A stretch of 61,071 nucleotides of DNA, the filler included, from Dugesia japonica (taxonomy: Eukaryota), in assembly GCA_001938525.1 (NCBI GenBank). It is 5 parts of 5 records of this genome, joined end to end, with 100 filler letters (N's around TTAATTAATTAA, not from the genome) between each part and the next. Parts side by side here need not be neighbours in the genome. Positions count along the whole stretch, not along the records: positions 34,108 to 51,679 come from MQRL01628809.1; 4 more parts are not named here. One strand, 5' to 3'. The notes below the pieces were generated by a model. That model ran no database searches. It was not told the origin of the DNA and saw nothing but the letters and a program-made list of their open reading frames with translations. A program made the position numbers and the translations under genes. Positions 12,801-51,947 of the stretch are shown one piece after another. How positions within the stretch are numbered: the first letter of the stretch is position 1; the number at the start of each line of letters is the position of its first letter.

Positions 12801-12809
12801 GTACGGCCA

Positions 12810-13265: not shown

Positions 13266-13781
13266 TTTGTATCTCCATCATCGAAAACTATATCCTCGTA
13301 TGATGTGTTTAAAACAACAAAGTATCTTTTATAGTTATTGTTTTATTTCTTTTCTTACTATTGCAATACAATACAAGTTGCTTAAATCTAGAAACATTGA
13401 TTGTTTGAAAAGTATGAAAATTTCAATTAATATTTTAAATTGCTTCATTTTTACATTTGTTTTTAAGTTTTTTCCTGCTTCTTCACCTATCACATTATTT
13501 TCCTACTATTTGCTCTACAGTACCAATAACAATTGTCTATTGTAAATATACTTTAATTTAATTGGCTACACGTTCTATTTGCTCCTTAATTCCTTTAAAA
13601 ATAATTATCTGAGGACAAACTTGTAAGCCATAAATATGAAGTCTTTAAACTTGTTTATCGCAATTATTACAATAAATGAAGGATCCATTGTTTATTGTTT
13701 CAATATGGTGGAATGCGGTGTCAAGTCTATTAATAATNNNNNNNNNNNNNNNNNNNNNNNNNNNNNNNNNNNNNNNNNNNN

Positions 13782-13793
13782 TTAATTAATTAA
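13782..13793. other. Artificial contig linker
   Basis: TTAATTAATTAA embedded in Ns. Confidence 0.95.
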
Positions 13794-13837
13794 NNNNNNN
13801 NNNNNNNNNNNNNNNNNNNNNNNNNNNNNNNNNNNNN

Positions 13838-14770
13838 AATTTTGTCAAATATAAAAAAAATTTAATCAATTAAAAAAATATTTTATAAAATAAAAAAATA
13901 ATTTTGTCACATAAAAAATATTTTATCGAATAATAAAATATTTAATCAAATAAAAAAAATTAATTTATCAAATAAAACAATTATTTTGTGAAATAAAAAA
14001 AAATTTTATCAATTAAAAAAATATTTTATCAAATAAAAAATGATTTTTGTCAAATATAAAACTATTTTATCGAATATTCAAATTTTTAATCAAATAAAAA
14101 AAATTAATTTATCAAATAAAAAAATTATTTTGTCAAATATAAAAAAAATTTTATCAATTAAAATAATATTTTATCAAATAAAAAATGATTTTTGTCAAAT
14201 ATAAAACTATTTTATCGAATATTAAAATTTTTAATCAAATAAAAAAAAATTTATTTATCAAATAAAAAAATTATTTTGTCACATAAAAAAATATTTTATC
14301 GAATAATAAAATATTCTATAAAAAAAAACTATTTCGTTGTCTAAAAAGTAATGTCCGTTTTTGTTAAATAAATTAAAATAAANNNNNNNNNNNNNNNNNN
14401 NNNNNNNNNNNNNNNNNNNNNNNNNNNNNNNNTTTATCGAATAATAAAATATTTAATCAAATAAAAAAAATTATTTTATCAAATAAAACAATTATTTTGT
14501 CAAATAGAAAAAAATTTTATCAATTAAAAAAAAATATTTTATCAAATAAAAAATGAATTTTGTCAAATAAAAAAATATTTTATCAATAAAAAAAATGATT
14601 TTAATCAAATATAAAACTATTTTTATCGAATAAAAAAATTATTTTGTCAAATAAAAAAAACTTTTATCAATTAAAAAAATATTTGATCAAGTAAACAAAT
14701 ATTCTATAAAAAAAAACTATTTCGTTGTCTAAAAAGTAATGTCCGTTTTTGTTAAATAAATTAAAATAAA
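13838..14770. repeat. AT-rich satellite, about 21-bp unit (AAAAAAATTATTTTATCAAAT-like)
   Basis: Many tandem ttttatcaaat / ttttgtcaaat units with A-runs. Confidence 0.85.
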
Positions 14771-16027
14771 AAAATCTGAGTACAATAATTTTTTTAATCA
14801 TCAATGATTAACAAGTTGGTAACAAGAAATAGAATGGGATAGAGATAAATATTGTACTTAGTTTTTTTTAATTTGGATTTATTAAGAAAAACAAACATTA
14901 CTTTTTGGATGACCTAAAATTTTTTAAATAAAAAAAGCCTTATTAGATTATTACTTTTTTGTCATCGGAACTTCTAGACAATAAAACTCTAATAAAAGTA
15001 GAAATATTGTCGTTGATATTCATAAGTGTTATCTCTGAGAATCGTATTTAATGAAATTAGATGCTCCTAATCTGCAATATTATTTAAAATAAATTGAAAT
15101 ATATACGAATGTGTTTTAAATCTTCCCTCCTTCTTTATACTTTGACCGCTTCCTAATTTTTATTCAGCGCCCCCAATGAACCTGAGGCTATCGCTCGCCC
15201 TGGATTGTTCTAGCGCTCCCAGGGGCGGTATCGCTTACTTTTGGAAACATTGGTTTAAACTATACCGATATTAACAATAAGTTAGAATACAACATTGTAT
15301 TAACATTTTTGTAAATTTAATTATACGAAATTGAAATTGTTGGAAAAAGTACACATTTCAAAAGAAAAAAAGATGAATATGCTTGACGATTAGACCAAAA
15401 GTTTAAATAGTAGAAATATAATTGTTTAAATATTAGGTTTACAAGTATGACTCCGCCGATTTTTACGATTTAAAAAATCAATGACAATGAAAAAAGTCCA
15501 GGTAAATTTTTATTACAAATAATTTCCATCATTAATAGCAACATTCTTTTACATTTGGGTAATATTTTTGGATGGGTTATGAATTCAATCATAGAAGAAT
15601 TGATTTTATTTTGTGGCATTCGAATCATCTAGTCATTTTTTGACATTTTCATAATTCGTGAAGCTGTGTTCCGACAGACTATGTGTCATTGACCGCAACA
15701 AGTGGTAATCCAACGGAGCAATGTCTATTGAGTTAGCGGGTACTAAACGACGGAGTCATATTTGTACACCTAATATAATTATAATAATAATAATAATAAT
15801 AATTATTATTATTATAATTATAATAATTAATTTAATAATTATTATTATTATTATTTTTATTATTGTTATTGGTTCCGAGGTCTTTTTATATTGATTACTT
15901 TATCCCATCACTGTATTTTTCCTGTTTCTTTCTTATTACATATATTTTTGTCTGGGGTATAATACACTGGAACCGCAAGTCATACTTGTACACTTACTAT
16001 AATTCTGTTTAATTTTTCTTTTTTTAG

Positions 16028-16286
16028 AATAGACGACTCAAATTACGAAAGTGATAAACCAAATCAAAACAAAAATGTTTCGAAAATTGAAGAGAAAGGC
16101 AATATTATGGAACCTTCTAATATAAAATATTCAAATTACTCCAAGAATCAATTTAAAAAGAAGAAATATCAAGAAAATCAGCAGAAAGTTACAAATGGTG
16201 AAAAATATAGTAAAAGAATGGGTAGCCATGGTCCTAAAGATACTACTTTTGATAAAAGAAATCACCGATCAAAAGCTGAAAAATAG
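16028..16286 (+). CDS. Candidate terminal coding exon of an unidentified host gene (K/N/E-rich)
   Basis: Polypyrimidine tract plus AG at 16026-16027, then an open frame IDDSNYESDKPNQ...DKRNHRSKAEK*. Confidence 0.45.
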
Positions 16287-16899
16287 GAATTCTGATTTAT
16301 AAATTTGAATTATATTATTAACATTTCTTTCATTTAAATAATTTAATGAAAAATTTATTTTTTATTAAACTTTTCCACAAAACATAACACATAATTTGCA
16401 ATCAAGAAATTGTAGATTGTTTATTTTGAAGTTCTTTGTTTAATTGTCGAATTACCTGATTATTGCCAATTGTTATATTGTGTAAAGCTAAATATTTTTC
16501 TTTTAAATTTTCAAGTTCTCTTTGCAATTTGATAATTTTCTGATCTTTCTATAAAAATAAAATAAATATTTAAATAATTGCTGTATTAGTTTCAAAATGT
16601 TTGACAAAAACTTTGAGTATGCAATAAATAATTGATTTTTTGGCGATTTATTCAGGTGTAGGAATTGGGATTTCGGGATCGTAAAATTATCGATCCCGTT
16701 CACTTTTATGAAAAGTGATACACACATTTACTTCGAATGATGTGGAAAAGTCCCAAAAAATAGTAAAAGTCTATAATTTTTTTTATTGAAATAAGCTCTC
16801 GAAATACACGAAATTTAGATCGTGTTTCATTTCCAAACCGTGAGATGATATTTGTAAGAAATAGATCTCCAGTAAAAAACGCCCTCTCGGCATCAAGTA

Positions 16900-17060
16900 A
16901 TTTTCGTATTTGCCTCCTAATTCTGAAGAACTCCAGTTTCCAATGAATTGTCATTTCCATTGAATTTGTTCGAGTTGATACATTTTTGAAGGGAAGTCCA
17001 TCTTTGGCAGTCATACGAGCATTAATTTCTTCCATAGATGGTTTTTAGCTCGGAAAGTCA
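16900..17060 (-). mobile_element. hAT-like transposase fragment
   Basis: SMEEINARMTAKDGLPFK resembles the N-terminal 'ARLxAKDGLPF' region of invertebrate hAT transposases. Confidence 0.4.
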
Positions 17061-24030: not shown

Positions 24031-24879
24031 TACAATTTATTTTTATGAATAATTTATCCTTATAAAATCTATCAGCAAAAAAAAATTTAAATAAAAAAAA
24101 ATTTAAAAAAAAATCCTATGTAATTATATTGTAAAACATAGGGAAAATATCGCAAATATTGCATAGAAGTCAATAAAAGTTTACATAAATTGCATAGATG
24201 TCTATGTAATATTTTCAAAAATAACATAGATGTCTATCTTATATTCACAAACGAAATAATATCATAAAACACATACAATACGATCAATAATGTTATATAA
24301 TATACACAATAAACCTTATAAAATTATATAATGCACACTTAATATACTCTATATATTCACATAATGCATACAATATACACTATAATACCCACAATTTACG
24401 AAATAATGTCATATAATACGCATAATACACGAAATAATGTCATANNNNNNATATATTTAACCAAATTAAATCATTTATATACATACAATATACCCTATTG
24501 TCATATAATACATACAATAAACCTAATAATTTCATATAATACACTCAAAATAAACCTAATAACATTAAATACATACTTTTACATCAATTGAACTAGTTAA
24601 ATGATACAACAAACCCTATACATACAGGTAAATACATACAATAAACCAAATACATCTATCTAAAATATTAATATTAAATGTTCCCGGGAAAATATTAAAA
24701 TTTTATACATATTAATCCATGTGTGCATCAAAAATACATATTAAGCAATCAAAGGACTAAAATAAATTTAACAACTGATTAGTAATGGATTTGTATAATA
24801 TTATAGGCGATATGATTGAACATATAACTTCATCGNNNNNNNNNNNNNNNNNNNNNNNNNNNNNNNNNNNNNNNNNNNN

Positions 24880-24891
24880 TTAATTAATTAA
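24880..24891. other. Artificial contig linker
   Basis: TTAATTAATTAA embedded in Ns. Confidence 0.95.
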
Positions 24892-25058
24892 NNNNNNNNN
24901 NNNNNNNNNNNNNNNNNNNNNNNNNNNNNNNNNNNCCACATATTTAAATATTTTTGTACTGTCTTTATATTAAGATTATAAATTTTACAAAAACCAGTTA
25001 ATGAATTATTTTTAAAATCATAATCATTTAACATCTTATAAAAAACTGTATCCATTTT

Positions 25059-28020: not shown

Positions 28021-31000
28021 ATGTCTACAATTTTATGCATTTCTGAAATCGAAGAACCTATTATATTTCAAACAAGTTTAACAGTAAGTGTAAAACAACA
28101 ATATAATATGTATTGTGTTTTGGTTAAAGATTATTTTATCTTATTTAAAAAGCCATCTGATATAATATCCTTCAAAAGACTTCCTATTACTAATAAAACG
28201 AATATAGAATTGGATAATTCTCAAAATAGTTTATCAATTTCTATAGGATCAAACAAATATACTTTTATCAGTACTGATATTGCATTGATTGAAAATTTGT
28301 TTGATGAAATTACATGTCTTATCAATAATTACATAAGTCCAAAACCATTAATTGATTATGAATATGCTGAAGTGAAAATCGATCAGATTGGATCATCTAG
28401 TGTTTATATTTTAATGGGCCGTGAAGATTATCATTTGTTTATCTATGAGAATCTCGATGAACACCAAAACAATATCGTTTCACATATTATCAATTGTAAA
28501 TTCTATTCTATCGAAAATGATTCAACTCATTCTATCGTGAAATCTTTGAAATTAATAGGTAAAAATCAAACATTTAAAATCAATTTTAAAGACGACACAA
28601 TCGTTGCCGATTGGAAAAGTTTATTTTCAAAATCATTAAATTCAGCTTTTAATGATGACGACTTTAAAATATTAACCGATATTTACGATAATGAATCGAA
28701 CAGGAGTTGTGCAGATTGTGGTAGTCCAAATCCAGAATGGGTTTCGATTAATTTGTTCGTAATTGTCTGTATAAATTGCGCTGGAATCCATAGATCACTC
28801 GGTACATCGGTTTCTCGAATTCAAAGTGCAATTATCGACAAACGAATTTGGGAAAATTCGAATCTAGTAGAAATCATGAAAGAAATCGGAAATGAGAAAT
28901 TGAATTCATTTTGGTGTAGAAATAAACCGAAATCAATTGATAATAAAAACAGTATCAATTCGATTTTATCGGATAATACGATATTCATTAAAGAGAAATA
29001 TCTGATGAAAAAATATATCGATCATGAATTCATCGATAATTCTGACGAAGAATTAAAAGAAAAATTGAAATTATCAGTTGGAACAAACGATCTGTTTTTA
29101 ACAATGCGATTATGGAACTCGATAAATTTCGATTATAACTCGGATTTCGTTGAGAAATTGTTGGAAATATCGAGAAATTCTCAACAAAATCTACAACAAG
29201 AATTTCTATCTGTACAACCGTTGAATAAATCGATTTTAAACACGCATAATTCGATTGTAATCAGTGAAAATGTATTGCAAATCGCTATTAATAATAATAA
29301 TAATTCAGAAAAACTCAATAATTTATTTCTGGTGTCCTTATTGAATAATTGTATATCGATTAAAGTCGAAAATTGCTCTGTAACCCCTATTGAATTAATA
29401 AACGTTTGTTGTATTTATTTTGATAGTATCGATTTAGTTTGGTATGATTATTTCAATAATGAAAATCTAATTATATCCGTTAATCCAGCGAGTAATTTCC
29501 ATAGAATTATCGGTAAAATCTCACTCAATAATTACCAGCAGATCGATGTAGATCGATTTGCATTTTTCAGCCAATCAAAACCGGTTTTAAAAAACTTGAA
29601 ATTTGATTTACTGAAATTATTGATTCCTAATGATAATAAAATAATCAATATTAACAATGATGAATTGACTTTATTTATCAATGTAGACGTGAGAAAAAAT
29701 TTCGAACGTTTCTCGAAATGTAAATGTTTCGTAACAGATCATGAAATTATTTTCTTGTCGCCGTTTTCTATGTTGTATGATTTGAAAAAATCGGAAAAAT
29801 GTGTTTTAATCGATGATAAGAAATCCATTCTGATAAAATTTAAAGTCGATGAACTCGAATTGATTACAACTGGGGTTGAAAATCAGAAAATCATTTATAA
29901 TTGTCTGGAAAAGGGAACGAAATCCAGTGAATTATTGAAGGATCCAATTGATAAAATGATTTTCTTTATCAGTTCTCGGGGTTTAAAATCAGAAGGAATT
30001 TTCCGAATTGGTGGAGCAATTAAAAAAGTAGATGCGCTTTTTAAAACTATAGATAATAAATCCACCAGTTTTACTATTGATCCTAACGTTTACAATGTTA
30101 ATGATGTCGCATCTTGTTTGAAGAAATATTTCCGATCACTTGATGAACCGATAATTAGTTGCGATTTATTTGACAAATTTAAAAGAGCTTCAATCGAACC
30201 AAATGAAAATGAGAAACTTCTTCTTTATAAAGAAGGATTATCACATTTACCACGTGATAATTATTTAGTTTTCCGTAAATTACTCGAACTGTTCTTCATG
30301 ATTCAAATGCCGATTAACCGTAATCGAATGGATAGTTCGAGTTTATCGATTTCCGTTTCTTCGTCTTTCATTTCTTTCGATAATTCCAACATACAAATTA
30401 ATAGTAATATAATGCGAGATCTCATTGAGAATTTTTTCTTTTTGTTTGACTATTCGAAAACCGAATCGGAAATATTGAGAAAATTCGTTGAAGGTCCAGA
30501 CAATGTTGATCAGAATATCATCAGAAACTTTTACGTTCATCCGAAATTGAAAAACAACTTAACGATTAATAAATTCGATAATGGAAAACTGAACTTTCTT
30601 GAACGGGAAATCAATTACATCATCATTAATATCAATATAAACAAATGTGTTGTTGTTAAACACGTTTATGAATTGTTTTTCAATGATTGTGGAATGCAGT
30701 TATGGCATTTTCTAACGAAACGATCGGGGTTTTCGTTGAAAACTATTAAAAGATTGATTTATTTGAATGATGGTATAACTCATTCGATTCTTTATCCGAG
30801 AACTATATTGAACTATGATAGTTATTTTGTTTTTCTAATAAACCCTCAAAATATAAATTCTACTGTGAGAAGATTGTTTCAGTGTGAAGTGAAATTGAAA
30901 TCAGCGGAAAAATATCAAGATTTCACTTTAATGATGAGTTTTCCGACTTCTCTGCAATTTTTCGATGATAAAAGTCATTCTCTTGACCCAGTTTATAATT

Positions 31001-31155
31001 TTCTACTGTCAGATATTATCGTTTACAGATTCCATACGAAAAGTATTAGTAAAATTTTTATTCTGTTCGGTACCAACGGTTTTATAAAGGTTAAATTTGA
31101 TAATTTCGACCTCTTAAAAGAATTTTTATGTATTTATGATCAATTCAGAAATTAA
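28021..31155 (+). CDS. ARAP: ARAP (centaurin-delta)-like protein with PH-like regions, ArfGAP and RhoGAP
   Basis: ArfGAP zinc finger CADCGSPNPEWVSINLFVIVCINCAGIHRSLG. RhoGAP GLKSEGIFRIGG...DVASCLKKYFRSLDEP. 1044-aa open frame with an in-frame TAA just upstream of the ATG. Confidence 0.9.
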   Translation: MSTILCISEIEEPIIFQTSLTVSVKQQYNMYCVLVKDYFILFKKPSDIISFKRLPITNKTNIELDNSQNSLSISIGSNKYTFISTDIALIENLFDEITCLINNYISPKPLIDYEYAEVKIDQIGSSSVYILMGREDYHLFIYENLDEHQNNIVSHIINCKFYSIENDSTHSIVKSLKLIGKNQTFKINFKDDTIVADWKSLFSKSLNSAFNDDDFKILTDIYDNESNRSCADCGSPNPEWVSINLFVIVCINCAGIHRSLGTSVSRIQSAIIDKRIWENSNLVEIMKEIGNEKLNSFWCRNKPKSIDNKNSINSILSDNTIFIKEKYLMKKYIDHEFIDNSDEELKEKLKLSVGTNDLFLTMRLWNSINFDYNSDFVEKLLEISRNSQQNLQQEFLSVQPLNKSILNTHNSIVISENVLQIAINNNNNSEKLNNLFLVSLLNNCISIKVENCSVTPIELINVCCIYFDSIDLVWYDYFNNENLIISVNPASNFHRIIGKISLNNYQQIDVDRFAFFSQSKPVLKNLKFDLLKLLIPNDNKIININNDELTLFINVDVRKNFERFSKCKCFVTDHEIIFLSPFSMLYDLKKSEKCVLIDDKKSILIKFKVDELELITTGVENQKIIYNCLEKGTKSSELLKDPIDKMIFFISSRGLKSEGIFRIGGAIKKVDALFKTIDNKSTSFTIDPNVYNVNDVASCLKKYFRSLDEPIISCDLFDKFKRASIEPNENEKLLLYKEGLSHLPRDNYLVFRKLLELFFMIQMPINRNRMDSSSLSISVSSSFISFDNSNIQINSNIMRDLIENFFFLFDYSKTESEILRKFVEGPDNVDQNIIRNFYVHPKLKNNLTINKFDNGKLNFLEREINYIIINININKCVVVKHVYELFFNDCGMQLWHFLTKRSGFSLKTIKRLIYLNDGITHSILYPRTILNYDSYFVFLINPQNINSTVRRLFQCEVKLKSAEKYQDFTLMMSFPTSLQFFDDKSHSLDPVYNFLLSDIIVYRFHTKSISKIFILFGTNGFIKVKFDNFDLLKEFLCIYDQFRN

Positions 31156-32281: not shown

Positions 32282-34007
32282 AATGGTAGCAAAGATAGCA
32301 AAAAAGTTGAAGAAGAAGAGACTTTGCGGAAAAGAGAGATTATACAAGAAATTAAGTAGATCGAGTAAAGAAAAACAGAGATCGAGTTGATGCAGTTGGA
32401 AATTACGCGGGAGTTACAAATCTAAATTATCAAAAACCGGTAAATTATACAGTGAATAGACATGTGGAGCAAAGAAAGGAAAAACAAAAAATGGAATGTT
32501 GGTAATTTCATAAGATCGGTCATACTAAAGCAAATTGTCCGACAAAAAAAGTAGTAGAGTGCTGGAGTTCTTATAAAACAGGACATATGAGTCGTGATTG
32601 TCCAAATAAAAATCCAATAAAATTTTTTGGTTGTGGAAAGGTTGGCCATATTAGAAGGTTATGTCAAGAAGTGAGGTGTAAACAATGTGGTAATGGTGGA
32701 CATAGAGCAGAAGAGTGCTACACAAATTTAAAAGNAAAAAGAACAAGTGAGAAATTTATGACTGCACAAATATCAAGAAACCAATATAATCGAGTACATG
32801 CTATTGAAGATGAAGATGTCCGAACAAACGATGGATATGAGTAAGTATATGAAAGTGATTCCAAAAGACAGTGCTCCAGCAGTAGAGAAGTTAGTTGGAG
32901 CCATCCATTGTTAAATGAAGTTTGTAATTATCCTCAAGTGGTCGAAAAGTGAGATGATATCGGAAAAATTACAGAAAATGTATACAGGTTTTAAAAGAGG
33001 AAAGGTTTTGCGGATGATAGAAAAGTAGAATGGGTTTGAAAAGTTGATGCAGAAAAGAAAACAAATACTTCTTACCATAAATTGCAAGGCAGACCAAGTG
33101 TTAAGATATCGATTCAAGGAAATAAAGTAGAATGTCTATTAGATACAGGGGCTCGAATTAACGTGATGAGTCAGAGTTTTTTTAATAAATTACAAAAAGT
33201 AAATTTAGAAATGATTGATGAAAATTGCGTTGTGCAAATAATAGTACACATCTAACAAAACACAAAATAATCACAAGTGGTNAACCAATCAATGTAAAAC
33301 CGTATAGACAACCAATGAATTTGAAATCTAAAATTGAAGAAGCTATCCAAAACCTTCTCGAAAATAATATTATCTGGAAATGCAACTCTACATGGAAAAA
33401 CCCACTGATCTGTGTTTGGAAAAAGGAAAAAAAAGACAAAAGAATATGTTTGGATTTCAGACAATTGAATGCAGTAACGAAAAGACAAGCCTTTCCTATG
33501 CCTAATATCGATGAAATGCTGGACAAGTTAGATGGAGCCAAATATTTAGTTCAATAGATTTTGGAAAAGCATACTATCAGGTAGAGTTCGAAGAAGAATA
33601 TCAAGAAAAAATGACGTTTTCAACGAAGCATGGACAATATTATTTTAATATAATGCCATTTGGAATCGCAGCGGCACCAGAGACATTTNNNNNNNNNATG
33701 ACAAATGTGGTAGGCGGAATCACTGGAGCTCTGGTGTATCTTGATGACATCCTGATATTTACCCACAATAAAGATAAACACTATGAAGTAATTGAAAGAG
33801 TGTTGATCGAAATAATGAAGGCTGGTCTAAGAATCAATACAGAAAAGTGTCCGTTTCTTCAAAACGAAATCACCTTGCTCGGACACATAATTAGCAGAGA
33901 TGGTGTTAGAACTGATCCGTCTTAAATAGAAGCTAAGAACATTTGGCAAACCTAACTGTGTGAAGAAGTTACGAAGTTTCTTGGGAATTTATAATTATTA
34001 CAGGAAG
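32282..34007 (+). mobile_element. Gypsy gag (multiple CCHC knuckles), protease and RT, pseudogenised
   Basis: GCGKVGHIRRLC, CKQCGNGGHRAEEC, CLLDTG, ICLDFRQLN, MPFG, VYLDDIL. Runs into the contig end. Confidence 0.95.
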
Positions 34008-34051
34008 NNNNNNNNNNNNNNNNNNNNNNNNNNNNNNNNNNNNNNNNNNNN

Positions 34052-34063
34052 TTAATTAATTAA
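34052..34063. other. Artificial contig linker
   Basis: TTAATTAATTAA embedded in Ns. Confidence 0.95.
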
Positions 34064-34479
34064 NNNNNNNNNNNNNNNNNNNNNNNNNNNNNNNNNNNNN
34101 NNNNNNNTATATATATATATATATAATCTAAATATATAATTAAATTTACTTTTTCAAATATTCTCTTCCTTGAGGATTAACCTGTTTTCTTATTGTAATT
34201 CATTTTTATCTAAATAAAATAACAATAAATCTAAAATAAATTAATAAAGAAAAACTTACAAAATTGTTGATAATTGTTATTGTTTTAAAATTTAGAAATT
34301 AAATTGTGACAAAAATTAATCAATAATACTTTTTTGTACACTAGTTTATAAAGAAACCAATAAGATTGTGAGAAAATTTTAAAATACCACAACGCAACAT
34401 ATTGTTGCATTAACAAATTATTAGTCATGAAAATAATAAAGACTAATTAAAAATAAAAAAAATAAAGACATTTTTAATT

Positions 34480-34890
34480 TTATACATTTATTAATATATA
34501 ACATACATTTTCAACTACAATTTTGATATTTATTTACATGAATTTCACTCATAATGTTGATTTTTTAAACATAACAGACAATGTTGACCACAGGTCTTTG
34601 TAAACGGATTTTGAATTCTAATTTTATTATATACAATTGGTTTTGATATTCTTGAGAGATGCGAGACCAACATTTGCGGATAATAAAAACCAATCGGATC
34701 AAAACTAATATTTTCATAGGTTTATGGTTAACTGCTATCCAATGTTCTCCATCGAGATTTGATGTGTGTGTATTGACGATTATGGCTTTATTAACTGGAA
34801 AGTATGGAAGCTTGTCTAGTGGATACACTCTTAACCATGTTGATCCAAGCACTTTTTTCCGATTTGATTAATCTGAATAGAACTATTAAA
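34480..34890 (-). pseudogene. Adenain-like (adenovirus-type) cysteine protease
   Basis: IIVNTH...GEHWIAV (His), FDPIG (Asp), IQNPFTKTCGQHC (Gln, Cys), read across frameshifts. Confidence 0.88.
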
Positions 34891-34983
34891 GTAAAAAATC
34901 AATTATATAATTAGGTATACTTTATAACATATATTGATTATAACATATATTGTTTACACTTATGCCTTTTAATCCAAGTTCGG

Positions 34984-36181
34984 TTAAACCAATACCGTTC
35001 TATTGACGTTAATTTGAATTTCCTTTTCAAATACTCTATTTATTACTACATATGCTGGTACGGACAAAGTTTTTTTCAAACTTTATATCCAATCATAAAT
35101 TACCTTGTTGCGTTAATTGACTTTGAGTTATATCGAAATCCGGAGCCAATACAAATGTAAAGAATGGATACTTGCTTTTTAATTCTTCAAATGTGATTCC
35201 GCAATCCAAATTCTTATTAAAGTATCCCATGTTTCTAACTATAGATTAGATCTATGTCATACTATAATCTTCCTTTTCAAAATCTTGGATATATATCTCT
35301 CGATAATCCGACATGTTTAAATGTTGAAATTGAGCTTTTATAGCCATCATTTAATTGTTCTTCACTTTGAAATGTGATTAAAATAAAGTTAGGCAAACGA
35401 CGATCACCAAATATTTGCTTCTTATGAAATGAAGAACTATTTTTATTAATAGCAAAAGCAACTATTTCCTTGTTTCTTATTGGGTACACTGCATTTTGCT
35501 TATTTAATTCAATTTAATGACCAGTCAATACAAAGGGATCAACTCATACGCGTTTAGCCATTAATTTTGCATCCATATTTTTATATCTAGGTTCATCAGT
35601 TCAAGATTCCAAACATATTTCAAAAGATTCTCTTTTCATTCGAATTTGAAAATTAACTCCAGGAATAAGATATTTTGGTTGATCCATAAATTCGAGTTGT
35701 ATTGATTCCCACAGAGACAATGATTTCTTTATACTCTTTTTTCTATTTGCTTCTGTTCCATATTCAATCTAATAATAAAGATTTTACTATCACCATTATA
35801 ATTCAGTATAGTTTCAATGAATACTTTTTGAATATAAGTTTCATTTCCACCTTCAATTTTGTAAGTATTAAATATCAGAATTACATCTTTTAACAAGGTG
35901 TGAAACATATAGTAGTTAGGCACCACATCTAACTTCTCATCCAATTCCTTTCCAGCCTTTTCAACTGCTTTTACTTGTATAGACAACAGAGTATCATTCA
36001 AATCTACATATTTAGTTTGTGAACCATTTATAATAAAAACCACATCATTTTTTGGATCATATATTAAATTCATTGGAAACACATCTTCAAACGATCCATA
36101 CTCAATAACCTCTTGGAGAGATGGTCGGTCGAAAATACGCAAGTCAGTTTTTCGCAAATCATTAATCGAATATAGTTCCAT
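34984..36181 (-). pseudogene. Major capsid protein (double jelly-roll), frameshifted
   Basis: DLRIFDRPSLQEVIEYG, YVDLNDTLLSIQVK, FMDQPKYLIPGVNFQIRMKR, YPIRNKEI, RLPNFILITF and FTFVLAPD follow the Polinton MCP motif order over about 400 codons. Confidence 0.82.
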
Positions 36182-36596
36182 GTCCTCTCATTCGTTTGTT
36201 TATACCTGATGATCTTGATTTCTTACATTTTTTATTATGTTTTGTAGGTTGTTTTGTTATAGTATTAGTTATACTATTGGGTATCTTGTTAGCTATGCAT
36301 GTTGGCAGCATGTTTGCTACCTTCGGTATCATATTAGTTACGCCAGACGGTAATGAAGACATTACATTTCGAAGCTTAGCTAATGCATTTGATTTTAGGG
36401 ATGATAGTATGTTTCCGTTATTTGCCAGCACATCCTGAGCAGTTTTCCCACCAAATAAACCAAAACGTTTAACAATCGGCAAAGCATATCTTTCAATTGT
36501 TTGCAACCAACCAGATCCATACTGTTTTCCAATAAAGTATGGCAATTCACCACCAACTTGACCGGTACTATACAATGCTACCATTTCAGAATTCAT
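36162..36596 (-). CDS. Conserved Polinton/adintovirus glycine-motif protein between minor and major capsid genes (putative core or membrane-active virion protein)
   Basis: Y...QVGGELPYFIGKQYGSGWLQTIERYALP, basic tail, MRGHG..IF end. Frame still open. Confidence 0.7.
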   Translation of the reverse strand: MNSEMVALYSTGQVGGELPYFIGKQYGSGWLQTIERYALPIVKRFGLFGGKTAQDVLANNGNILSSLKSNALAKLRNVMSSLPSGVTNMIPKVANMLPTCIANKIPNSITNTITKQPTKHNKKCKKSRSSGINKRMRGHGTIFD

Positions 36597-37637
36597 TTAT
36601 TTTTCGAAAATGTAATGTTAAATGAGTTTTTGTATCTTTTGGAAACAAAATTAATTGTTCATTATCATCAGTTATAATTATTTCTATATTGTTTATACGT
36701 GATGTAGAAATAGGCAAATACATGGGATTATCAACAATTATTTGAACCACTTTATCATTTTCTTCGTTATTCATCCAAACTGTTTTCAAAAGAGGAACAT
36801 TTACATCACCTACAATTATCGGTTCGACAATACTACTACATATCAACATTTAATTATGACACTTTAGTAGTTTAGGTTTCTTAATACTCTTGAGTATTTT
36901 ACCTGGTACATTGATGTTAGTTCGAATATATTGCGGTGTTTCTAATCCAAGAGTTTTTCTCAAGGTTGAATGGAATGCAATACTTCTAATTTTATCTCCT
37001 ATTTCTAATTCCATTAACTAATCAGGCTTTAATGTGAATGATTTAAATAGTTTTGAACAGTTTTTATTAATATATTCATTTAATTGATTTAAATCTTTTA
37101 TGAATAATTCATTCTAAAATTGAAATGTATGATCACTTACAGTAAAATAATAGAGTCATCGTTTTTAAATGGTTGCATGTTAATAGAAAATTGATGGTCA
37201 AAATAATGGTTAATTGTTTTATTTAAATTAAATCTCTTTACATTTTCCTCACTATCAATTGACAAAACACTCTCTGAACTAACCGTACTATTATTATTAT
37301 AAGATGTAATCGTATTTCAATTCGAAAATATATGGGTTTCAACACCACTAAATTTTGGCTGTGGTCCTACATAATATAAACTGATTGACTTGTTTTTATT
37401 GTCAATAGAAACAATTATTGCTCTTGTTATAAGATGAAATTCTTGATATTGAATCGTGACGTCACTATAATACGGAAAATGAAAATATACATATGTGAAA
37501 TCCATCATGGCTACTTCCCAATTACCTTCCAAGTAAATCGGATTTTGAAACTCAACATTAAACTTACTAGCTGTATTGTTCGGATAAATAAGAGGACTAC
37601 TATTACTTGGTAAAAGTGTAAAGAAATTGTTGTTTAT
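36586..37637 (-). pseudogene. Minor capsid (penton-like) protein
   Basis: N-terminal FFTLLPSNSS..YPNNTASKFNVEFQNPIYLEGNWEVAM and C-terminal IVEPIIVGDVNVPLLKTV...PMYLPI...LTLHFRK. Confidence 0.85.
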
Positions 37638-37644
37638 TGTTGAT

Positions 37645-38666
37645 TTATTGCGATGCAGATATCCAACTAGGATTTTATAACCATGCCACTTTACATAATA
37701 TTGTTTATTCTGTTTCGTACCCTTTGACCTTATAACATTTTCAATTTTGAATACTGATGGCAGATGAATTACTTGTAGCTCCTATTCATAAAACCTTCCC
37801 TGCATAATATTATTCTCATAATCTTTAATGACATACATGACAGGATTTTGTTTGGTATTGATTTTAAATATTTGAAACACCTCATCACTCTCATTAGTAT
37901 TGAAATTCTTGATGAATTAAGAAGTCAATATCTTTAAAATTCTAACGTGGTCACCAACTTTAAGTTTTGGTTTTTTAATTGCTTTCTTATGTTGTCGTGA
38001 GAGCCACAGTTTTAATTGATTATTTGAACTTACATCAACTGGTCTTTCTCCATTTAAACCCATATGACTTGAATTATTGTAACTATAATTTAGTTTCGGC
38101 AATTATTCATGTTTTATTACCAATATACACAAAATATTTCTTCAAAACATCTCTCAATGTACGATTAAATCTCTCGACATGTGCGGCTTTGTACTGACTA
38201 AATACAGTATAATGATTTATTTTTAAATGCGATGGTAGATTTTTGACTTAAGAAATATAAAATATCTTACCCAAATCTGTTTATAAATTATACGGGTGTC
38301 CATTTTTAAACATTAATTTTATTGCAGCTTCAATATCGGGTGCGGATCTTGATTTGACTGGAACTGTTCTTGCAAATCTGTTTAATGCATCAATACAAGT
38401 CAAAATATATTTGTTTCCTTTATTGATTTTTGAGTATGGAATCATTTCCATTAAATCTATTTGCCATAAATCGTCAATACCATATGTTTTATATGCTCTC
38501 GTTGGAAATCTTTTCAGCATTGGCTTGCTCAGACTGTACGCTAACTGGTTTGATAACCACTTATTTGTTTTGCTTTTCGATTTTGGTGCGGTTTTCATCA
38601 ATTTTCTATGCCACGAAAACTTGCTTTGCTTTTTAGATCCGTCCATATCGTCTGCAGTTTGCCCAT
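37645..38666 (-). pseudogene. Retroviral-type (rve) integrase with C-terminal chromodomain, copy B
   Basis: MGKLQTIWTD, WLSNQLAYSLSKP, WQIDL, YILTCID, AAHVERFNRTL, LKVGDHVRI, GRFYE, KQYYVKWHGY..SWI. Confidence 0.9.
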
Positions 38667-38732
38667 TACAACAATTTGATGAAAATTTGAAATTAAAATT
38701 AGGTAGTGATTGTAAAGCACCCATTGTTTTTT

Positions 38733-39055
38733 TAAAATGAGTCTAGCCTAATGCGGCTAATGAAATTGGTAATAAAGCAGCAATAAAACCACCATCTTGT
38801 TTATCTATTACGTTTCTCATCAATCTCTTGTTCATAGTATTTACAAGCGATACTAACAATTTTTTATATTTTTTCAAGACTTATTCTCTATTTTTGCTTA
38901 CATTTACATTACCATTTACAATATTTACAAAAAAGTTCAATCAAATCATCAATAACATAGGTTGGAAATTATTGCAAAATTTTCATTCTTTTTTGTTTTG
39001 AAGATTTGAGAAATGCTGCAAAAAATGGAATTATTCTTTGTAAATAAATTACATA
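38733..39055 (-). pseudogene. Small Polinton protein with QxGGF and amphipathic C-terminus, copy B
   Basis: VNIVNGNVNVS...LKKYKKLL...KQDGGFIAALLPISLAALG. Confidence 0.7.
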
Positions 39056-39226
39056 CTTGTTGATTGTTTATTAAACATATTTTTGAACTGATTTTTGATT
39101 TTCTTTGTCAGGTTCTTGTTTTACTTTTGAATGCTGCTTATTATCCGAACGTTATTTAGCTTTTGGATTGGTTTGCTCTTGTTTAACTATAACATTTGTA
39201 AATTTCGTCGTTTTGTAACAAAATAA

Positions 39227-39376
39227 TTACTTCGTTTGTTTATACACTATGACGCGATTAGAGTTAAACATATAAGTTCGCACTCTCAAATAATGTGGAC
39301 ATTGTTGTGTAAAGTCTAAGAAGAGGTATCCATGCGGCTTTACTGTTGCATCCTTGAAAGCGTTCAATAGAAATTA
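39227..39376 (-). pseudogene. Packaging ATPase C-terminal fragment, copy B
   Basis: FLLNAFKDATVKPHGYLFLDFTQQCP..LRVRT aligns with copy A FLIESF*DATETPHGNLFLDFTQQFP..YRVRT. Confidence 0.85.
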
Positions 39377-40152
39377 CTATTTAAATTCTTGATAAATGGT
39401 GAAGCTGATATCTTTGAGATTTTCACATGATCACCAACTTTATACTTTAGTTTTTTATTTGCTTTTGAATGTTTACGCGATAATCATAACTTTAATTGAT
39501 TGTTTGTACTTACATCAACCGGTCTTGCTCCATTTAATCCTTTATGACCAGAATGATTATAACTATGAATAAGTTTCGGTAAAACATTTATCCAAGTCTT
39601 ATTACCAACATGTACAAAGTACTTTTTCAATGCATCTCTCAATGTGCGATTAAATCTCTCTACATATGCAGCTTTATACTGCGAGAATACACTATAATAG
39701 TTTATGGATAGATGATTTATAAGTTGTTTCACCTTAGAATTGTAAACTTCCTTTCCCAAATCTGTTTGAAAATTATCTGGATGTCCATTTTTAAACATTG
39801 ACTTGATTACCGGTTCCACATCATTAGCAGATTTTGATTTAACAAGAACAGCTCTTGCAAATCTACTGAATACATCAATATATGTCAAAATATACTTGCA
39901 TCCTTTATTAATGTTTGAATATGGAATCATCTCTATTAGACCCATTTGCCATAAATCATCAATACCATATGTTTTATATGCTCTTGTTGGAAATCTTTTC
40001 AACATCGGCTTGTTCAGGCTGTACGATAGTTGTCACAATAACTACTTTTTTGTATTTCTTTTCATTTTTTGAGCTGCTTTCATCAACTTGTCTACGCCTC
40101 GAACACCTGCTGGGTTTTTTGGATCCGTCCATATTGTCTTTAGTTTCCCCAT
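39377..40152 (-). pseudogene. rve integrase, copy A, 3'-truncated
   Basis: MGKLKTIWTDPKNPAGVRGVDKL, YIDVFSRFA, QTDLGKE, ERFNRTL, KVGDHVKI, then breaks into ATPase sequence. Confidence 0.9.
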
Positions 40153-40210
40153 TACAACAGTTCGATGCCAATTTTAAGTCAAAATTAGATAATGATTGCA
40201 ATTCGCCCAT
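39974..40210 (-). CDS. 78-aa ORF overprinted on the integrase 5' end (MGxxxS and CC motifs)
   Basis: MGELQSLSNFDLKLASNCCNG...EQADVEKISNKSI*. Homologous frame in copy B is MGALQSLPNFNFKFSSNCCNG...EQANAEKISNESI*. Confidence 0.6.
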   Translation of the reverse strand: MGELQSLSNFDLKLASNCCNGETKDNMDGSKKPSRCSRRRQVDESSSKNEKKYKKVVIVTTIVQPEQADVEKISNKSI

Positions 40211-40251
40211 TGTTTATTAAAATATTGATCAAAAGCTTCAATTGTTTATTT

Positions 40252-40557
40252 GAAATGAGTTAAACCTAAAGCTGCTAATGCAATTGGTAGTAATGTTGCT
40301 ATAAATTCACCACCTTGATTAGTTTGTATTACTTTCCTCATCAATCTCCTATTTTTAGTATTTACAAGCGATTATGTTTTTTTATGTTTTTTCAATGTTT
40401 TCTTTTAAACTTCGCTCAAATTTACATTACAGTGTAAAATTTATGATTTTAAATCATCCATAACATATAGTGGAAACAATTCCAAAATTCTCATTCTCAT
40501 TGATTTTGATGATTTAATCAAAGCAGTAAAAAACGGAATACTTCTTTCTAATTTCAT
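40252..40557 (-). pseudogene. Small QxGG/amphipathic protein, copy A
   Basis: MKLERSIPFFTALIKS...NQGGEFIATLLPIALAALGL. Confidence 0.7.
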
Positions 40558-40594
40558 TTTTTTATTTCAAAGCAAAGACATACCAGTTAATTGT

Positions 40595-40938
40595 TTATAA
40601 TGATATCCATTTTCTATTCATAAATTTCAGTTTCTTTCTAGTACTTTTTGCAAGTTTTTTAAACTTATTCAATACATTATTCTTATTTGCATATGGTTTC
40701 TTATGTGATATCCATCTTCCATCTGTCATTTGCAGTTTCTTTTCATCACTTTTTGAAAGTTTTTTAAACTTATTCAACTGTATTTTATTATTTGCATTTG
40801 TTTTCTTATGAGATTGTTTTTGTGAGACTTTTTCTTATAAGATCGATTTGTTTTTTTCTTCAAAACTAACCTTTTCCTTTGTTCAACAACATCACCATCA
40901 GTAACTGAATCAACTACAATTTTCTTAAACTTTGCCAT
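40595..40938 (-). pseudogene. Lysine-rich small protein with an internal repeat of about 35 aa
   Basis: MAKFKKIVVDSV..., then a repeated LNKFKKL.KS..KKL...WIS unit. Confidence 0.5.
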
Positions 40939-40958
40939 TTTATATAATATTATGAAAA

Positions 40959-41611
40959 TTACCTATTTTGTTTATATACTGTGATACCATTAGGGTTGAA
41001 TATATCTGTTCTCACCCTATAATCATCTGGAAATTGTTGTGTAAAGTCGAGAAATAGATTTCCATGTGGTGTTTCTGTCGCATCTTAAAATGATTCAATA
41101 AGAAATTGTCTGTTATTTAGATATGCTTGTCTTGCTAAAAAATCAACAACAGTTTGATCTCTAGGATTTTTGAATAGAACCAAATATTGCAGGTTTAAAT
41201 TGCGTGTTCTATGACTACCTCCTTGATAAAATAGATTTTGTGTAATAAATATAACAGTCACATTACTATGTCTCAATATCTTTGTGAATAAATTATTGAA
41301 ATCTTTTTCTTTATTTGCCTCCTGATACAGATCATCAACAANNNNNNNNNNNNNNNNNNNNNNNNNNNNNNNNNNNNNNNNNNNNNNNNNNTACTCCAAT
41401 TAGAATCAAAACCATTTATGATTTTCATTTTAATATTACAAAATTCAGATTTAGTCAGACCATGCACCTCATCTGAACCTCTATGCTAGTATATGTTTTT
41501 AAATTTAGACTTGAATAACTTTGATTTCAATAATTGACATACAAACAAAGTTTTCCCGCTACCACTAAGTCCAACAATTTGATAGACTGCATCATTTCTT
41601 AATCTCTCCAT
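40959..41611 (-). pseudogene. A32/FtsK-like genome-packaging ATPase, copy A
   Basis: Walker A GLSGSGKT, Walker B VDDL, RHSNVTVIFITQN, RNLNLQYLVLFKNPRD. Confidence 0.92.
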
Positions 41612-41899
41612 CTTGTTTTTCTTTAGTTTACTCATAATTTAGTATATTGTTTATAATTAAAAGTTAAAGAAACATTAAAAATCACGTGACTATGAATTTT
41701 TATTAATAAATAAATAGGTGTGTAACTCAGATGCAACACACATACACTGTAAATCACGCGCTTATGAATTTTAGACTCCCCTCATACCATGTAAAAAATA
41801 AAGACTCCCTCGTCCCTTGCAAAATATTAAGACTACCCCATCTGTTACATAAAAAAATAATTTAATTAAATTTAATTTAATTTAATTTATTTATATTAA

Positions 41900-42065
41900 A
41901 AAGATTTCCCTGCCTTGCAATAAAAAATTTCCAACCAAAATATTGTTTTTAAATTTCCCGCCAAAAATATATTTTTGAATTTCCCGCCAAAAATTTTTTT
42001 AAAAATTTCCCGCCAAAAACGTTTTTGAAAATATTAAGACTCTTCTCTTCCCCGCTCAAAAATCT
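41900..42065. promoter_or_regulatory. Array of TTTCCCGCCAAAA (E2F-consensus-like) motifs at 26-bp spacing
   Basis: Perfect copies start at 41954, 41980 and 42006. Degenerate copies at about 41904, 41928 and 42048. Confidence 0.55.
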
Positions 42066-42769
42066 TACAAAACAACACTTCCCTGATCAAAATACCGAAA
42101 AAATAACCAAAAATACAACAAATACATAAAAATAACATTACTTTCATTAAATTCATCAAATTAAGCAATATACAGCATTTTAAACCAAATTAAATATTTC
42201 AAAACATTATGACGCATAACCAACTGACAGAAAAATTTCAAATAAATATCATAAAATCCAATAATTAATTCTCTTTCCACTCATACCAACCTCCACCTCA
42301 CGAAAATATTTTTAGCACACTTATACCACTTACAAAATAAACCAATCAAATAGTAACCCTTAAAATAAAAAATCAAAGCACATTCGACAACCAACATCTT
42401 CACTATCACATTACCTCTCCAACAAGCCATCAACCAACAAATTCCATCAACAACATAAAAACCTACAAGCCCCACAAAAACCACCCACGATAACTCATAC
42501 GAATGTGCCCGTGTGCCACTACCCTTGTACCGACAACCATCCATCCAAACTCATAAGTCCTTTAGACAATATATAGACCAAATCTTTGTCCAACAACAAA
42601 TAAATCTTNNNNNNNNNNNNNNNNNNNNNNNNNNNNNNNNNNNNNNNNNNNNNNNNNNNNNNNNNNNNNNNNNNNNNNNNNNNNNNNNNNNNNNNTTTTT
42701 AAAAACCACCTTAGCAACCCAAACACACACAAAATTTAAAATTTAAAAATACACACACACTTTCAGGAT

Positions 42770-42960
42770 TAAAAAAAACTGATCAGATCAAAAAAAAATT
42801 TGATCCGATCAAAAAATTTATGATCCCAAAAATCTTAGAAAAAAATCGAGCACAAAAATCATGGCTAAAAAGCGCAGCTTAAGCGTAATGTGTTTCCGAG
42901 CCCCCCTCTGGGAATGGGGGCGATTTAGAAATTGTGCCCATGTGCCACTATCTACCTACT
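42770..42960 (-). repeat. Putative Polinton terminal (TIR) region
   Basis: 5'-AGTAGGTAGATAGTG end, GC-rich subterminal block and GATC-A(n) repeats. Partner TIR is not in the window. Confidence 0.6.
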
Positions 42961-43333
42961 CTCCGTATTAGCCACAAAATGAGTTTTGTTCATTAATCAA
43001 GGAGTATACAAATGTCAACGTTGATTCAGTTCTAGACGAATATTCATCTATATCAATGGCATGTCCCTATAAATGTAATAGTTGCATTCGACGAAATATC
43101 CAGAAAGTTTTACATATTCATATTAACAATCAAAATGAAAAACACTAGAATAATGTTTGTAATAAATGTTTTATAAATGATTTTCTTTTATTTTAACTTT
43201 TTCAATAATCAAANAAATAATCAAAGAAATAAAATATTAACATTTATTAATTATAACAATTACAACAGTTTTAATCACGTTTTATTCAAGTTTGTTAAGT
43301 TTTAATTATCCAAATTGGTGTAGATTCAATATT

Positions 43334-48879: not shown

Positions 48880-51533
48880 AGCAAATCAGAGTTCATATTG
48901 TTAGACATTTTTTATTTTACTACTACAAACTATACTTAATAAGAAAAATGATTATTGAATAGAATTTTAAAAATCTTTGTGCAATTTCTATTGGCTCAAA
49001 ATTATTAAATAATAATTATTTCCTCATACCCCCATTCTTAAGAAACTTTCTAAGTTTTTCCACATTTCTTTCTAATTGCTCTCTATTTTCTCCTTGTACT
49101 GCATACCGCCTTTCATGAATTTTCTCAATCTGTGTTCAAATCTGTGTTGGCTTTTATTTCTTGTTTCTATCTTGATGAGTACCATATCACCACTTTGAGT
49201 TCTCTTTTAGTAATCACGTCTGAAGTATTTTCTTTAGCTCTTTCTGAAACGTCTGACTCATACCACTTTTTTCTGTTAATTTTCTTTCCAAGTAAAATCT
49301 CAGCCGGAAATATTAGTGCAGTCATTAGAGATTTCTACAGACCCTCAAAAGTATCGTTTATTTCATCTGTCCATTCTAATTTCTTGTTGCTTGGTCCGCT
49401 ACACAACTGCTCTAATATCTTTGATTTTCTTGGTAGTTTTTTATAAACTTCCTGTAATAATTACAAATTCCCAAGACACTTCGTAACTTCTTTACACAGT
49501 TAGGTTTGCCAAATGTTCTTATAGCTTCTATTTTAGACGGATCAGTTCTAANNNNNNNNNNNNNNNNNNNNNNNNNNNNNNNNNNNNNNNNNNNNNNNNN
49601 NNNNNNNNNNNNNNNNNNNNNNNNNNNNNNNNNNNNNNNNNNNNNNNNNNNNNNNNNNNNNNNNNNNNNNNNNNNNNNNNNNNNNNNNNNNNNNNNNNNN
49701 NNNNNNNNNNNNNNNAAACCATGGCTCCATTGATTCCGCCTACCACTTTTGTCATCATCTCTTGAAATGTCCCTGGTGCTGCTGCGATGTTAAATGGCAT
49801 TCTATTAAAACAATATTATCAGTGCTTCATTGAAAACGCCGTTTTTTCTTGAGATTCTTTTTCGATTTCTACCTGATAGTATGCATTTCCAAAATCTATT
49901 GAACTGAAATATTTGGTTCCATCTAACTTGTCCAGCATTTCAACGGCATTAGGCATCGGAAAGGCTTGTCATTTCGTTACTGCATTCAATTATCTAAGCA
50001 TATTCTTACATCCTTCTTTTTTCTTTTTCCAAAAACAAATCAGGGAGGTATCCCATGGAGAGTTGCATTTTGAGACAATATTATTCTCGAAAAGGTTTTG
50101 GATAGTTTATTCAATTTTAAATTCTTAGTTCATTGGTTTTACAATGATTGGTTCACCACCTTTGATTATTTTGTGTCTTGTCAGATGTGTGCGTCCTACA
50201 TCCCATTTATCTGCCATAAAAGCAGATCTTTTTTACTTTCAGTTATGTTCAATAACCGTTGATCTTCTTTAATCTTCAAAGTATTTAAAGCTCTTGTCAA
50301 TTGCTCTCTCTTTTTAATTTGTCTCCAAAATTTTGCTTCAATATTACAAATCTAATTTTCAACTTTTTAATGCGTTTTGCTATCAACCTTTTACATAAGT
50401 TGATATCCAAAAATCTTCTGCATATCTATTACTCCTATTAGATCTGGAGTCACTCTTTCAACAACTAAGAAACTTCAACAATTATCACTCCAGTTCTAAC
50501 TTTCCCAACAATTCCAAGTGTACTATTATTTGCACAACGCAATTTTTCATCACTCATTTCTAAATGAACTTCTTGTAATTTATTAAAACAACTCAAACTC
50601 ATAACGTTAATTCTAGTTCCTGTATCTAATATACATTCAACTTTATTTCCTTGAATTGATACCGTAACACTTAGCCTGCTTTGCAATTTATGATACGACA
50701 TATTTGTTTTGTGTTCTGCTTCAATTGTTCCAACCCATTCTACTTTTCAATTATCCCAAAACTTTTCCCTCTTTAAGAACCTGTATACTTTTTCTGTAAC
50801 TTTCTCGATATCATCCCACTTTTCGACCCCTTGAGGATAATTACTAACTTCATTTAACAATGGATGGCTCCAAACAACTCCTCTACTGGTNNNNNNNNNN
50901 NNTTTGGGTACTGCCTTTCAAAATCACTTTCATATGCTTCCTCATATCCATCGTTTGTACTGAGATCTTCATCTTCAATCGAATGTACTCGATTATATCG
51001 GTTTCTTGATCTTTCTGCAGTCAAAAATTTCTCACTTGTTCTTTTTGCTTTCAAATTTGAGTAGCACTCTTCTGCTCTATGTCCACTATTATCACATCGT
51101 TTACACCTCACTTCTTGACATAACTTTCTAATATGGCCAACCTTTCCACAACCAAAACATTTTGATGGTTTTTTGTTTGGACAATCTCAACTTATATGTC
51201 CTGTTTTATGACAACTCCAACACTCTACCACTTTTTCTGTCGGACAATTAGCTTTAGTATGACCGATCTTATGACATAACCAATATTCAATATTTTGTTT
51301 TTCCTTTCTTTGCTCCACATGTCTATTGATTGTATATTTACAGGTTTCTGATAATTTTGATTTGTAACTCTCGCGTAACTTCTAACTACATCAACTCGAT
51401 TTCTGTTTTCCTCTACTCGATCTACTAACGTCATTGTTTCTTCAATTTCTTCAATATTCTCTCGTTTCCGTAAAGTCACTTCTTCTTCAACCTTTCTGTT
51501 ATCTGAACAATATACTAGCATCTTTGCAACCAT
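48880..51533 (-). mobile_element. Gypsy element (gag, protease, RT, internal deletion, integrase tail, LTR start); same family as 32282-34007
   Basis: Four CCHC-like knuckles, CILDTG, MPFNI. Sequence jumps to the integrase tail at about 49320. PPT AAGAATGGGGG at about 49029-49040. Confidence 0.92.
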
Positions 51534-51723
51534 TTTGTTGTTGGGTATTTCTACTCAACAAAAGATTTTATGGTTCGAAAATATAATTAAGATTTTACGG
51601 GTGTCAAATTCTTTATCTTTAATTGTGTGTCGATACAATATTATATAATCAATATGTGACAATGTAAATAAACTAATATNNNNNNNNNNNNNNNNNNNNN
51701 NNNNNNNNNNNNNNNNNNNNNNN

Positions 51724-51735
51724 TTAATTAATTAA
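51724..51735. other. Artificial contig linker
   Basis: TTAATTAATTAA embedded in Ns. Confidence 0.95.
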
Positions 51736-51947
51736 NNNNNNNNNNNNNNNNNNNNNNNNNNNNNNNNNNNNNNNNNNNNAAACCCATCATAATTATAAAC
51801 ACAAAATATAACACATACAGAATTATAGACACATAATAAATTAGACATATAATGTATACATAATTTACAATATAATAATAATAATTATAATAATAATGAT
51901 AATAATTACAATTACAAAAATTACGAGAAATAAGAAATTTCAATATA

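Follow-up and report, generated by a model that had tools for sequence, protein, structure and literature searches.

A repeated gene block and an integrase-ATPase junction in a decayed Maverick-derived locus of Dugesia japonica

Mavericks and the Dugesia locus

Mavericks or Polintons (animal adintoviruses, Polintoviricetes) are described as carrying an A32-type ATPase, an rve integrase with a chromodomain, a penton, a double-jelly-roll capsid protein and an adenain-like protease (PMC8097293; PMC8502044), and most of their genomic copies are reported to be degraded (PMC8097293). Mosaicism is widespread among the genomes of Mavericks and related elements. Transfer of the capsid module between adintovirus lineages has been described (PMC8502044), and Barth, Ha and Aylward (2026; bioRxiv 10.64898/2026.10.13.758929) report tandem integration with tandem modules that are 70-78% identical, and propose a deletion overlapping two integrated viruses as a route to mosaic genomes. 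In the polisuvirus examples of that preprint, the tandem modules are kept and have different replicases.

The locus described here has a similar gene set. It lies in the MQRL01628809.1 part of the window (the whole stretch of D. japonica DNA that was analysed, 61,071 nucleotides with filler included) and contains a Maverick ATPase, integrase, penton, capsid and a probable protease gene, with at most one end (Table 1). Its run of integrase, minor capsid, small ORF, major capsid and protease corresponds to the int-mcp-pw-Mcp-pro module of PMC8097293. Judged by its gene content, the element is a decayed Maverick-derived fossil; as the window shows no polymerase, we refrain from describing it as complete.

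The integrase, broken in both of its copies, matches rve (PF00665) with an E value of 7.6e-9 in copy A; in copy B the matches to rve (E 4.1e-5) and Chromo (E 0.0017) are both under the Pfam cut-off. Copy A aligns with residues 1-257 of P0002, an uncultured integrase of 347 amino acids, at 74%, and copy B with residues 1-346 in four pieces. The ATPase of copy A matches the ATPases of relatives at 57-77% (tblastn, residues 2-74 and 85-209), and a relative matches Pox_A32 above the cut-off (E 1.8e-6). The major capsid gene is 45-57% similar to an ORF of the metagenome locus L016, for which the nearest Atlas cluster is the double-jelly-roll family PF21738 at 0.98; Pfam and PDB sequence and profile searches with the major capsid gave no match. 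A model of the intact L016 penton (pLDDT 83.9) matches the mavirus penton 6g41 (E 3.8e-8, TM 0.34) as well as the Sputnik and adenovirus pentons, and the window penton is 37-40% similar to that of L016 at both ends. For the protease, the corresponding ORF of L018 matches Peptidase_C5 weakly (E 0.024, under the cut-off), and the position of the gene fits.

The locus differs from the usual Maverick in three ways: no polymerase is seen within the window, one end is present at most, and the block from ATPase to integrase is repeated, apparently from a second lineage. Queries with the long L010 and L016 ORFs gave no protein-primed DNA polymerase B in the window (best E 0.28). These ORFs were taken as pPolB from motifs judged by eye, Pfam giving only Endonuclease_7. 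The polymerase may sit outside the window, because the contig stops at the linker where relatives have a polymerase-like ORF; with no polymerase in the window, the Alpha or Beta class is not assignable. Maverick termini are inverted repeats with 5'-(AG)3 or (AGT)2 ends, bordered by a 6-bp target site duplication. The likely terminal region here has an imperfect AG/AGT-type end motif, and its candidate end (42960-42962) matches (AGT)2 at 5 of 6 bases and has no partner repeat within the window. The ATPase, K-rich and QxGG ORFs are on the strand of the integrase module, as in L010 and L016, whereas in most vertebrate elements they are on the opposite strand.

Table 1. Features of the locus, in minus-strand order, with the evidence or condition of each
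Feature	Position	Strand	Remarks
Likely left terminal region, element A	41640-42962	-	Non-coding; 26-bp repeats at 41926-42026; 87-N gap inside; likely end 42960-42962
Packaging ATPase A	40962-41635	-	Full length, with stops and a 50-N gap; tblastn with relatives' ATPases
K-rich ORF A (pm position)	40598-40938	-	Frameshifted; 105-bp tandem duplication inside
QxGG ORF A (pz position)	40252-40557	-	3 stops; tblastn with L015 ORF, residues 1-104, 43%
Integrase A	39373-40143	-	Residues 1-257 of 347 only, without the chromodomain end; 3 stops
Junction	39372-39375	-	Register comparison
ATPase B	39233-39373	-	Last ~47 codons only; no Walker motifs
K-rich ORF B	39075-39215	-	Short, decayed; limits approximate
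QxGG ORF B	38734-39067	-	Stops and a frameshift
Integrase B	37627-38657	-	Full length with chromodomain; stops and frameshifts
Minor capsid (penton) gene	36598-37637	-	Broken; tblastn of relatives
Small ORF, pw position	36162-36596	-	Open, 144 aa; 50-55% to relatives over first ~80 residues
Major capsid gene	34987-36165	-	Broken; tblastn with L016 ORF, four pieces
Probable adenain-like protease gene	34554-34858	-	Frameshifted; tblastn with L018 ORF, 49-57%
AT-rich sequence, probably element B	34110-34553	.	Multi-copy contigs extend over it; terminates with a TA repeat and a scaffold linker

The repeated block and its junction

An earlier, sequence-only reading had proposed that a block made of the ATPase C-terminus, a K-rich ORF, a QxGG ORF and the integrase occurs twice, and our comparison recovers both copies on the minus strand, A at 39372-41107 and B at 37893-39375. 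In a global alignment of A with B, 1135 of the 1490 aligned bases are identical (76.2%), and self-BLAST returns two matches, 37893-39043 with 39373-40551 (74%) and 39225-39375 with 40957-41107 (76%). Along the minus strand the terminal region is followed by ATPase, K-rich ORF, QxGG ORF and integrase of copy A; beyond the junction come the end of ATPase B, the K-rich ORF, QxGG ORF and integrase of copy B, and then penton, small ORF, major capsid and protease. The two K-rich ORFs are counterparts by position that align poorly, that of B being far shorter (gaps of 92, 37 and 33 nt), and the names pm, pz and pw are likewise given from position alone. A candidate integrase-penton fusion ORF at 37317-37781 was rejected as a frameshift product, since integrase residues 332-346 run on in a different frame.

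The assembly around the locus is fragmented, with 31 runs of N across the 61-kb window, and its DNA is AT-rich (GC mostly 20-33% per kb). The window also holds an intronless ArfGAP-RhoGAP gene (28021-31155, 1044 aa) that resembles animal ARAP proteins, the Atlas score of 0.78 for this likeness being a lead only. Both copies of the block and the junction are contained in an N-free contig stretch of 7.2 kb (34108-41341). The terminal region and the first part of ATPase A stand on the far side of a 50-N gap (41342-41391), and their link to the rest of copy A is therefore a scaffold join; across the gap the ATPase stays in register in the gene, from residue 74 to residue 85. At the capsid and protease side, the MQRL01628809.1 part is bounded by the linker at 34008-34107.

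In the assembly, integrase A gives way to ATPase B at 39375-39372; the sequence-only reading had placed this change at about 39377. Integrase A is cut short at residue 257 of about 347 and followed, out of frame, by the final ~47 codons of ATPase B; this stub corresponds to residues 163-209 of a 212-aa relative (66%, tblastn). Because the halves are out of frame and the integrase frame meets a stop two codons past the junction, the join would yield no fusion protein.

Register comparison with integrase B and ATPase A shows that bases 39375-39373 match both sides. Base 39372 matches the ATPase side and also fits the next residue in all seven of the integrases displayed. These 3-4 shared bases are a modest hint of microhomology-mediated joining. 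Their weight is low, since 8.6% of random joins between the halves have 3 or more bases in common and 3.2% have 4 or more, and since the microhomology is judged from proxies that are just 73-78% identical.

Divergence of the copies and their relatives

The copies were compared as genes over 380 codons, with 20 of 400 passed over for stops or gaps. Over this set dS is 0.67 and dN 0.18, giving a dN/dS of 0.27 (bootstrap 0.19-0.37), well below 1 as the check proposed with the sequence-only reading would have it for divergence during activity. When neutral change with the same base spectrum is simulated, the ratio comes to 0.60-1.21, with a minimum of 0.50 in 300 runs. By gene, the ratio is 0.26 for the ATPase end (43 codons), 0.43 for the QxGG ORF (91 codons) and 0.22 for the integrase (246 codons), so that it is low even in the two genes that are truncated here, ATPase B and integrase A. 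Differences between the integrases pile up at third codon positions (39, 36 and 82 at first, second and third), which argues that A and B are not an assembly duplicate of one sequence; the sequence-only reading had drawn this conclusion from their synonymous differences.

In their present state a stub of 47 ATPase codons and a cut integrase cannot be under purifying selection, so most of the divergence would predate the join. On this reading of the codon data, A and B grew apart while each was still functional, and the join came later. Decay since then is alike in both halves: each has 7 stops in the aligned frames, and near-invariant integrase residues are lost at 7 of 84 and 12 of 82 positions (Fisher p 0.23). 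The dS between A and B far exceeds this post-insertion decay. The product at this locus is a broken fossil and likely has no function, given the stops and frameshifts in most genes, the lack of a fusion protein and the lack of a polymerase in the window.

Searches returned 145 longer integrase homologues, the best 79% similar to the core of integrase A, and 119 of the 120 listed carry PF00665. A and B form one clade with the uncultured integrases P0001 and P0002 (support 100/99 in a careful 12-row tree, 99 in a quick 45-row tree). Over the same columns, A is 74% identical to B, and A and B are each 75% identical to P0002. Within the 12-row tree, A and B are weakly supported sisters on a short branch (82/78), a relation that the 45-row tree leaves unresolved; the other rows of both trees are database relatives. 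Weak as it is, the sister relation weighs against a fusion of two lineages. The pattern named beforehand for a neutral duplication after insertion, A and B as each other's closest relatives together with a dN/dS near 1, is thus seen faintly in its first half and not in its second.

Among 65 metagenome loci examined, 30 have ATPase and integrase together, many of them on short contigs, and none of these 30 has a second copy of either gene. The long related loci keep the gene order of the window. L010, L016 and L018 share this order, but their genes are open and each has one ATPase and one integrase; L010 and L016 also have additional genes ahead of the ATPase and, on the other strand, the long polymerase-like ORF. 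A scan of viral contigs found no relatives.

The best public sequencing runs contain 17-22% of the words of the stretch, so they appear to carry relatives and not the exact locus. We mapped four of the 16 runs, these four being of organism A and from four samples, to 34110-42608 at 85% likeness, leaving out same-sample runs (X2, X4, X6) and runs with small shares (X7-X11, X13-X16). Between 18,358 and 42,937 records matched per run, about 129,000 in all. Summed depth, which is not copy number, reaches 9,700-17,000 in the K-rich A bin and 1,300-2,400 in the K-rich B bin, and in the likely terminal region of A it stays high as far as 42608, the limit of the mapped stretch. A-like and B-like contigs form separate populations, both present in all four runs. 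Single B-side contigs reach depths of 1,000-1,750 and show many differences from the window, which would be expected were the B of the window one decayed copy within a repeated family.

One contig, from run X12, tracks integrase A exactly to 39372, and its remaining 163 letters depart from the window sequence, as would an unfused A-type copy. No contig bridging the junction was present among the 31 records listed of the ~129,000, in runs that apparently lack the exact locus. Among the joints (15 listed of 855), 39455 to 37990, 38989 to 40503 and 38692 to 40241 are in roughly homologous register, and we take them for intermediate family members, distinct from the junction.

Probable origin of the locus and its meaning

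Our preferred explanation, held with moderate confidence, is that two Maverick copies, now decayed and from lineages 76% identical, were fused by a deletion between same-direction copies that lay in tandem or with B within A. A and B would at first have been separate active subfamilies, integrated side by side or B into A. One deletion would then have taken the left end of B and the first ~162 codons of its ATPase and, had the copies stood in tandem, also what remained of A. The deletion was probably repaired over the 3-4 shared bases, and the fused product would have decayed afterwards.

The low dN/dS, the single block in all 30 relatives and the separate contig populations in four runs support a fusion of two lineages, in line with the out-of-register fusion of two subfamilies that the sequence-only reading had put forward. 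The departure of the X12 contig at 39372 counts for the deletion. That reading had also drawn the terminus and ATPase from one element and the capsid genes from another; the capsid genes do go to B by contiguity, while the terminal end goes to A by the scaffold join only. The right end of B and any remainder of A fall outside the contig. The converse arrangement, A inserted into the ATPase of B, was rejected within the window, which past the end of A has neither a second end nor the front of an ATPase.

The similar decay of the two halves fits a one-time integration of a ready-made chimera equally well. Here a template switch or end-joining between two Mavericks replicating in one cell would have made a defective genome, with the left end of A and the capsid module of B, that was inserted whole by an integrase acting in trans. 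The same runs are rich in both lineages, and free contigs with tandem modules of the same range of identity as in the tandem integrations are reported in the preprint cited above. Against this stands the lack of any sign of multiplication, the junction being absent from the listed records, which is weak evidence, and we consider a chimera older than its integration unlikely. A shade less probable again is the fuller version, in which a recombinant made in replication, its end and packaging ATPase from one lineage and its capsid module from the other, was inserted whole and may then have multiplied as a non-autonomous family.

We are about as doubtful that the junction is an artefact, with two loci of a very repetitive family joined either in a chimeric molecule of the library or wrongly by the assembler, as we are of a chimera made before integration. 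The fragmented assembly, the tens of thousands of matching records per run and the missing bridge would all suit such an error. The junction, however, lies in the N-free stretch, which counts for a real join, and its overlap of 3-4 bases is too short to favour a k-mer misjoin and out of register, where misjoins of repeats would be expected in homologous register; in runs without this locus, moreover, an absent bridge proves nothing.

An old internal tandem duplication within one element, its copies diverging later, would formally give the same layout and would suit the weak sister relation, but it has only a slim chance, and in its neutral form is unlikely and rejected, because the dN/dS values imply that the now truncated ATPase B and integrase A were selected as whole genes, dS is too high for decay after insertion, A and B are each as near to P0002 as to one another, and no relative has the duplication.

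A fusion by deletion of two same-direction Mavericks would make this locus a plausible, though dead, example of a process that has already been proposed. Like the tandem and tandem-mosaic polisuviruses of Barth, Ha and Aylward, A and B are same-direction neighbours with modules of comparable identity. In contrast to those examples, the deletion would here be already done, with its breakpoint placed to 3-4 bases within two non-homologous genes and its product dead. Our literature search, mostly at the level of listings, found no base-resolved Maverick-Maverick junction, and cases may exist. As a single dead copy, bridged at its junction by none of the listed records, the locus illustrates the route and does not demonstrate that working viruses arise from it.

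If real, the locus offers the tandem-deletion route a concrete candidate whose breakpoint is mapped, and suggests that lineages 24% apart can be fused when non-homologous genes are joined over short homology. Should the chimera instead have formed before integration, it would offer a base-resolved breakpoint for how Mavericks turn mosaic. For annotation, the warning is that gene blocks found twice in a Maverick are not necessarily the outcome of a duplication or an assembly error.

Artificial joins and other window features

The window contains four 100-base scaffold linkers (see table), and because these are artificial joins, adjacency across them provides no evidence. The repeat spanning an N gap is probably an assembly overlap. 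Additional gypsy-like fragments lie near 5.7-7.7 kb, 17.7-18.3 kb and 45.9-48.8 kb. Full-length homologues of the ArfGAP-RhoGAP host gene number only two, at 58% and 45%.

Features of the window outside the viral genes
Feature	Position	Description
Scaffold linkers	13738-13837, 24836-24935, 34008-34107, 51680-51779	44 N, 12-base all-frame stop, 44 N
Repeat	11759-12610	96%, 552 bp apart, spans N gap
Satellite	13833-14715	units of 20-21 bp
ArfGAP-RhoGAP (ARAP-like) host gene	28021-31155	1044 aa, intronless
Gypsy-like retrotransposon, two decayed copies	32293-34007, 49448-51504	opposite orientation, 81-94% identical
Putative Mutator-type transposase-like fragments	44480-44954	

Gene content of the relatives and the window

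Among the related metagenome loci, L010 (5616-7687), L001, L002 and L003 carry two tandem, diverged penton genes, whereas the window has one. A TBP-like gene precedes the ATPase in L010 (2420-2869), where it matches PF00352 (E 5e-18), and in L016 (2175-2621), where the gene is similar by eye; a TBP-like gene was looked for in the window and was not found. At the start of the L010 contig, an ORF (222-719) resembles a ubiquitin-conjugating (E2) enzyme, as judged by eye.

Between the penton and major capsid genes, the window has a small ORF of 144 aa (36162-36596, minus strand), called pw from its position only; this ORF is entirely open, with broken genes adjacent to it. It exceeds most relatives (mostly 99-118 aa) by 30-45 residues, and longer ORFs of 136-138 aa occur in the loci L020, L021 and L028.

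Repeat number in the K-rich ORF

The frameshifted K-rich ORF of copy A contains a 105-bp tandem duplication (79%, window 40601-40810). Two contigs of the public run X5 join 40709 to 40820, which leaves out approximately one 105-bp unit, and repeat number in this ORF therefore varies across the family.
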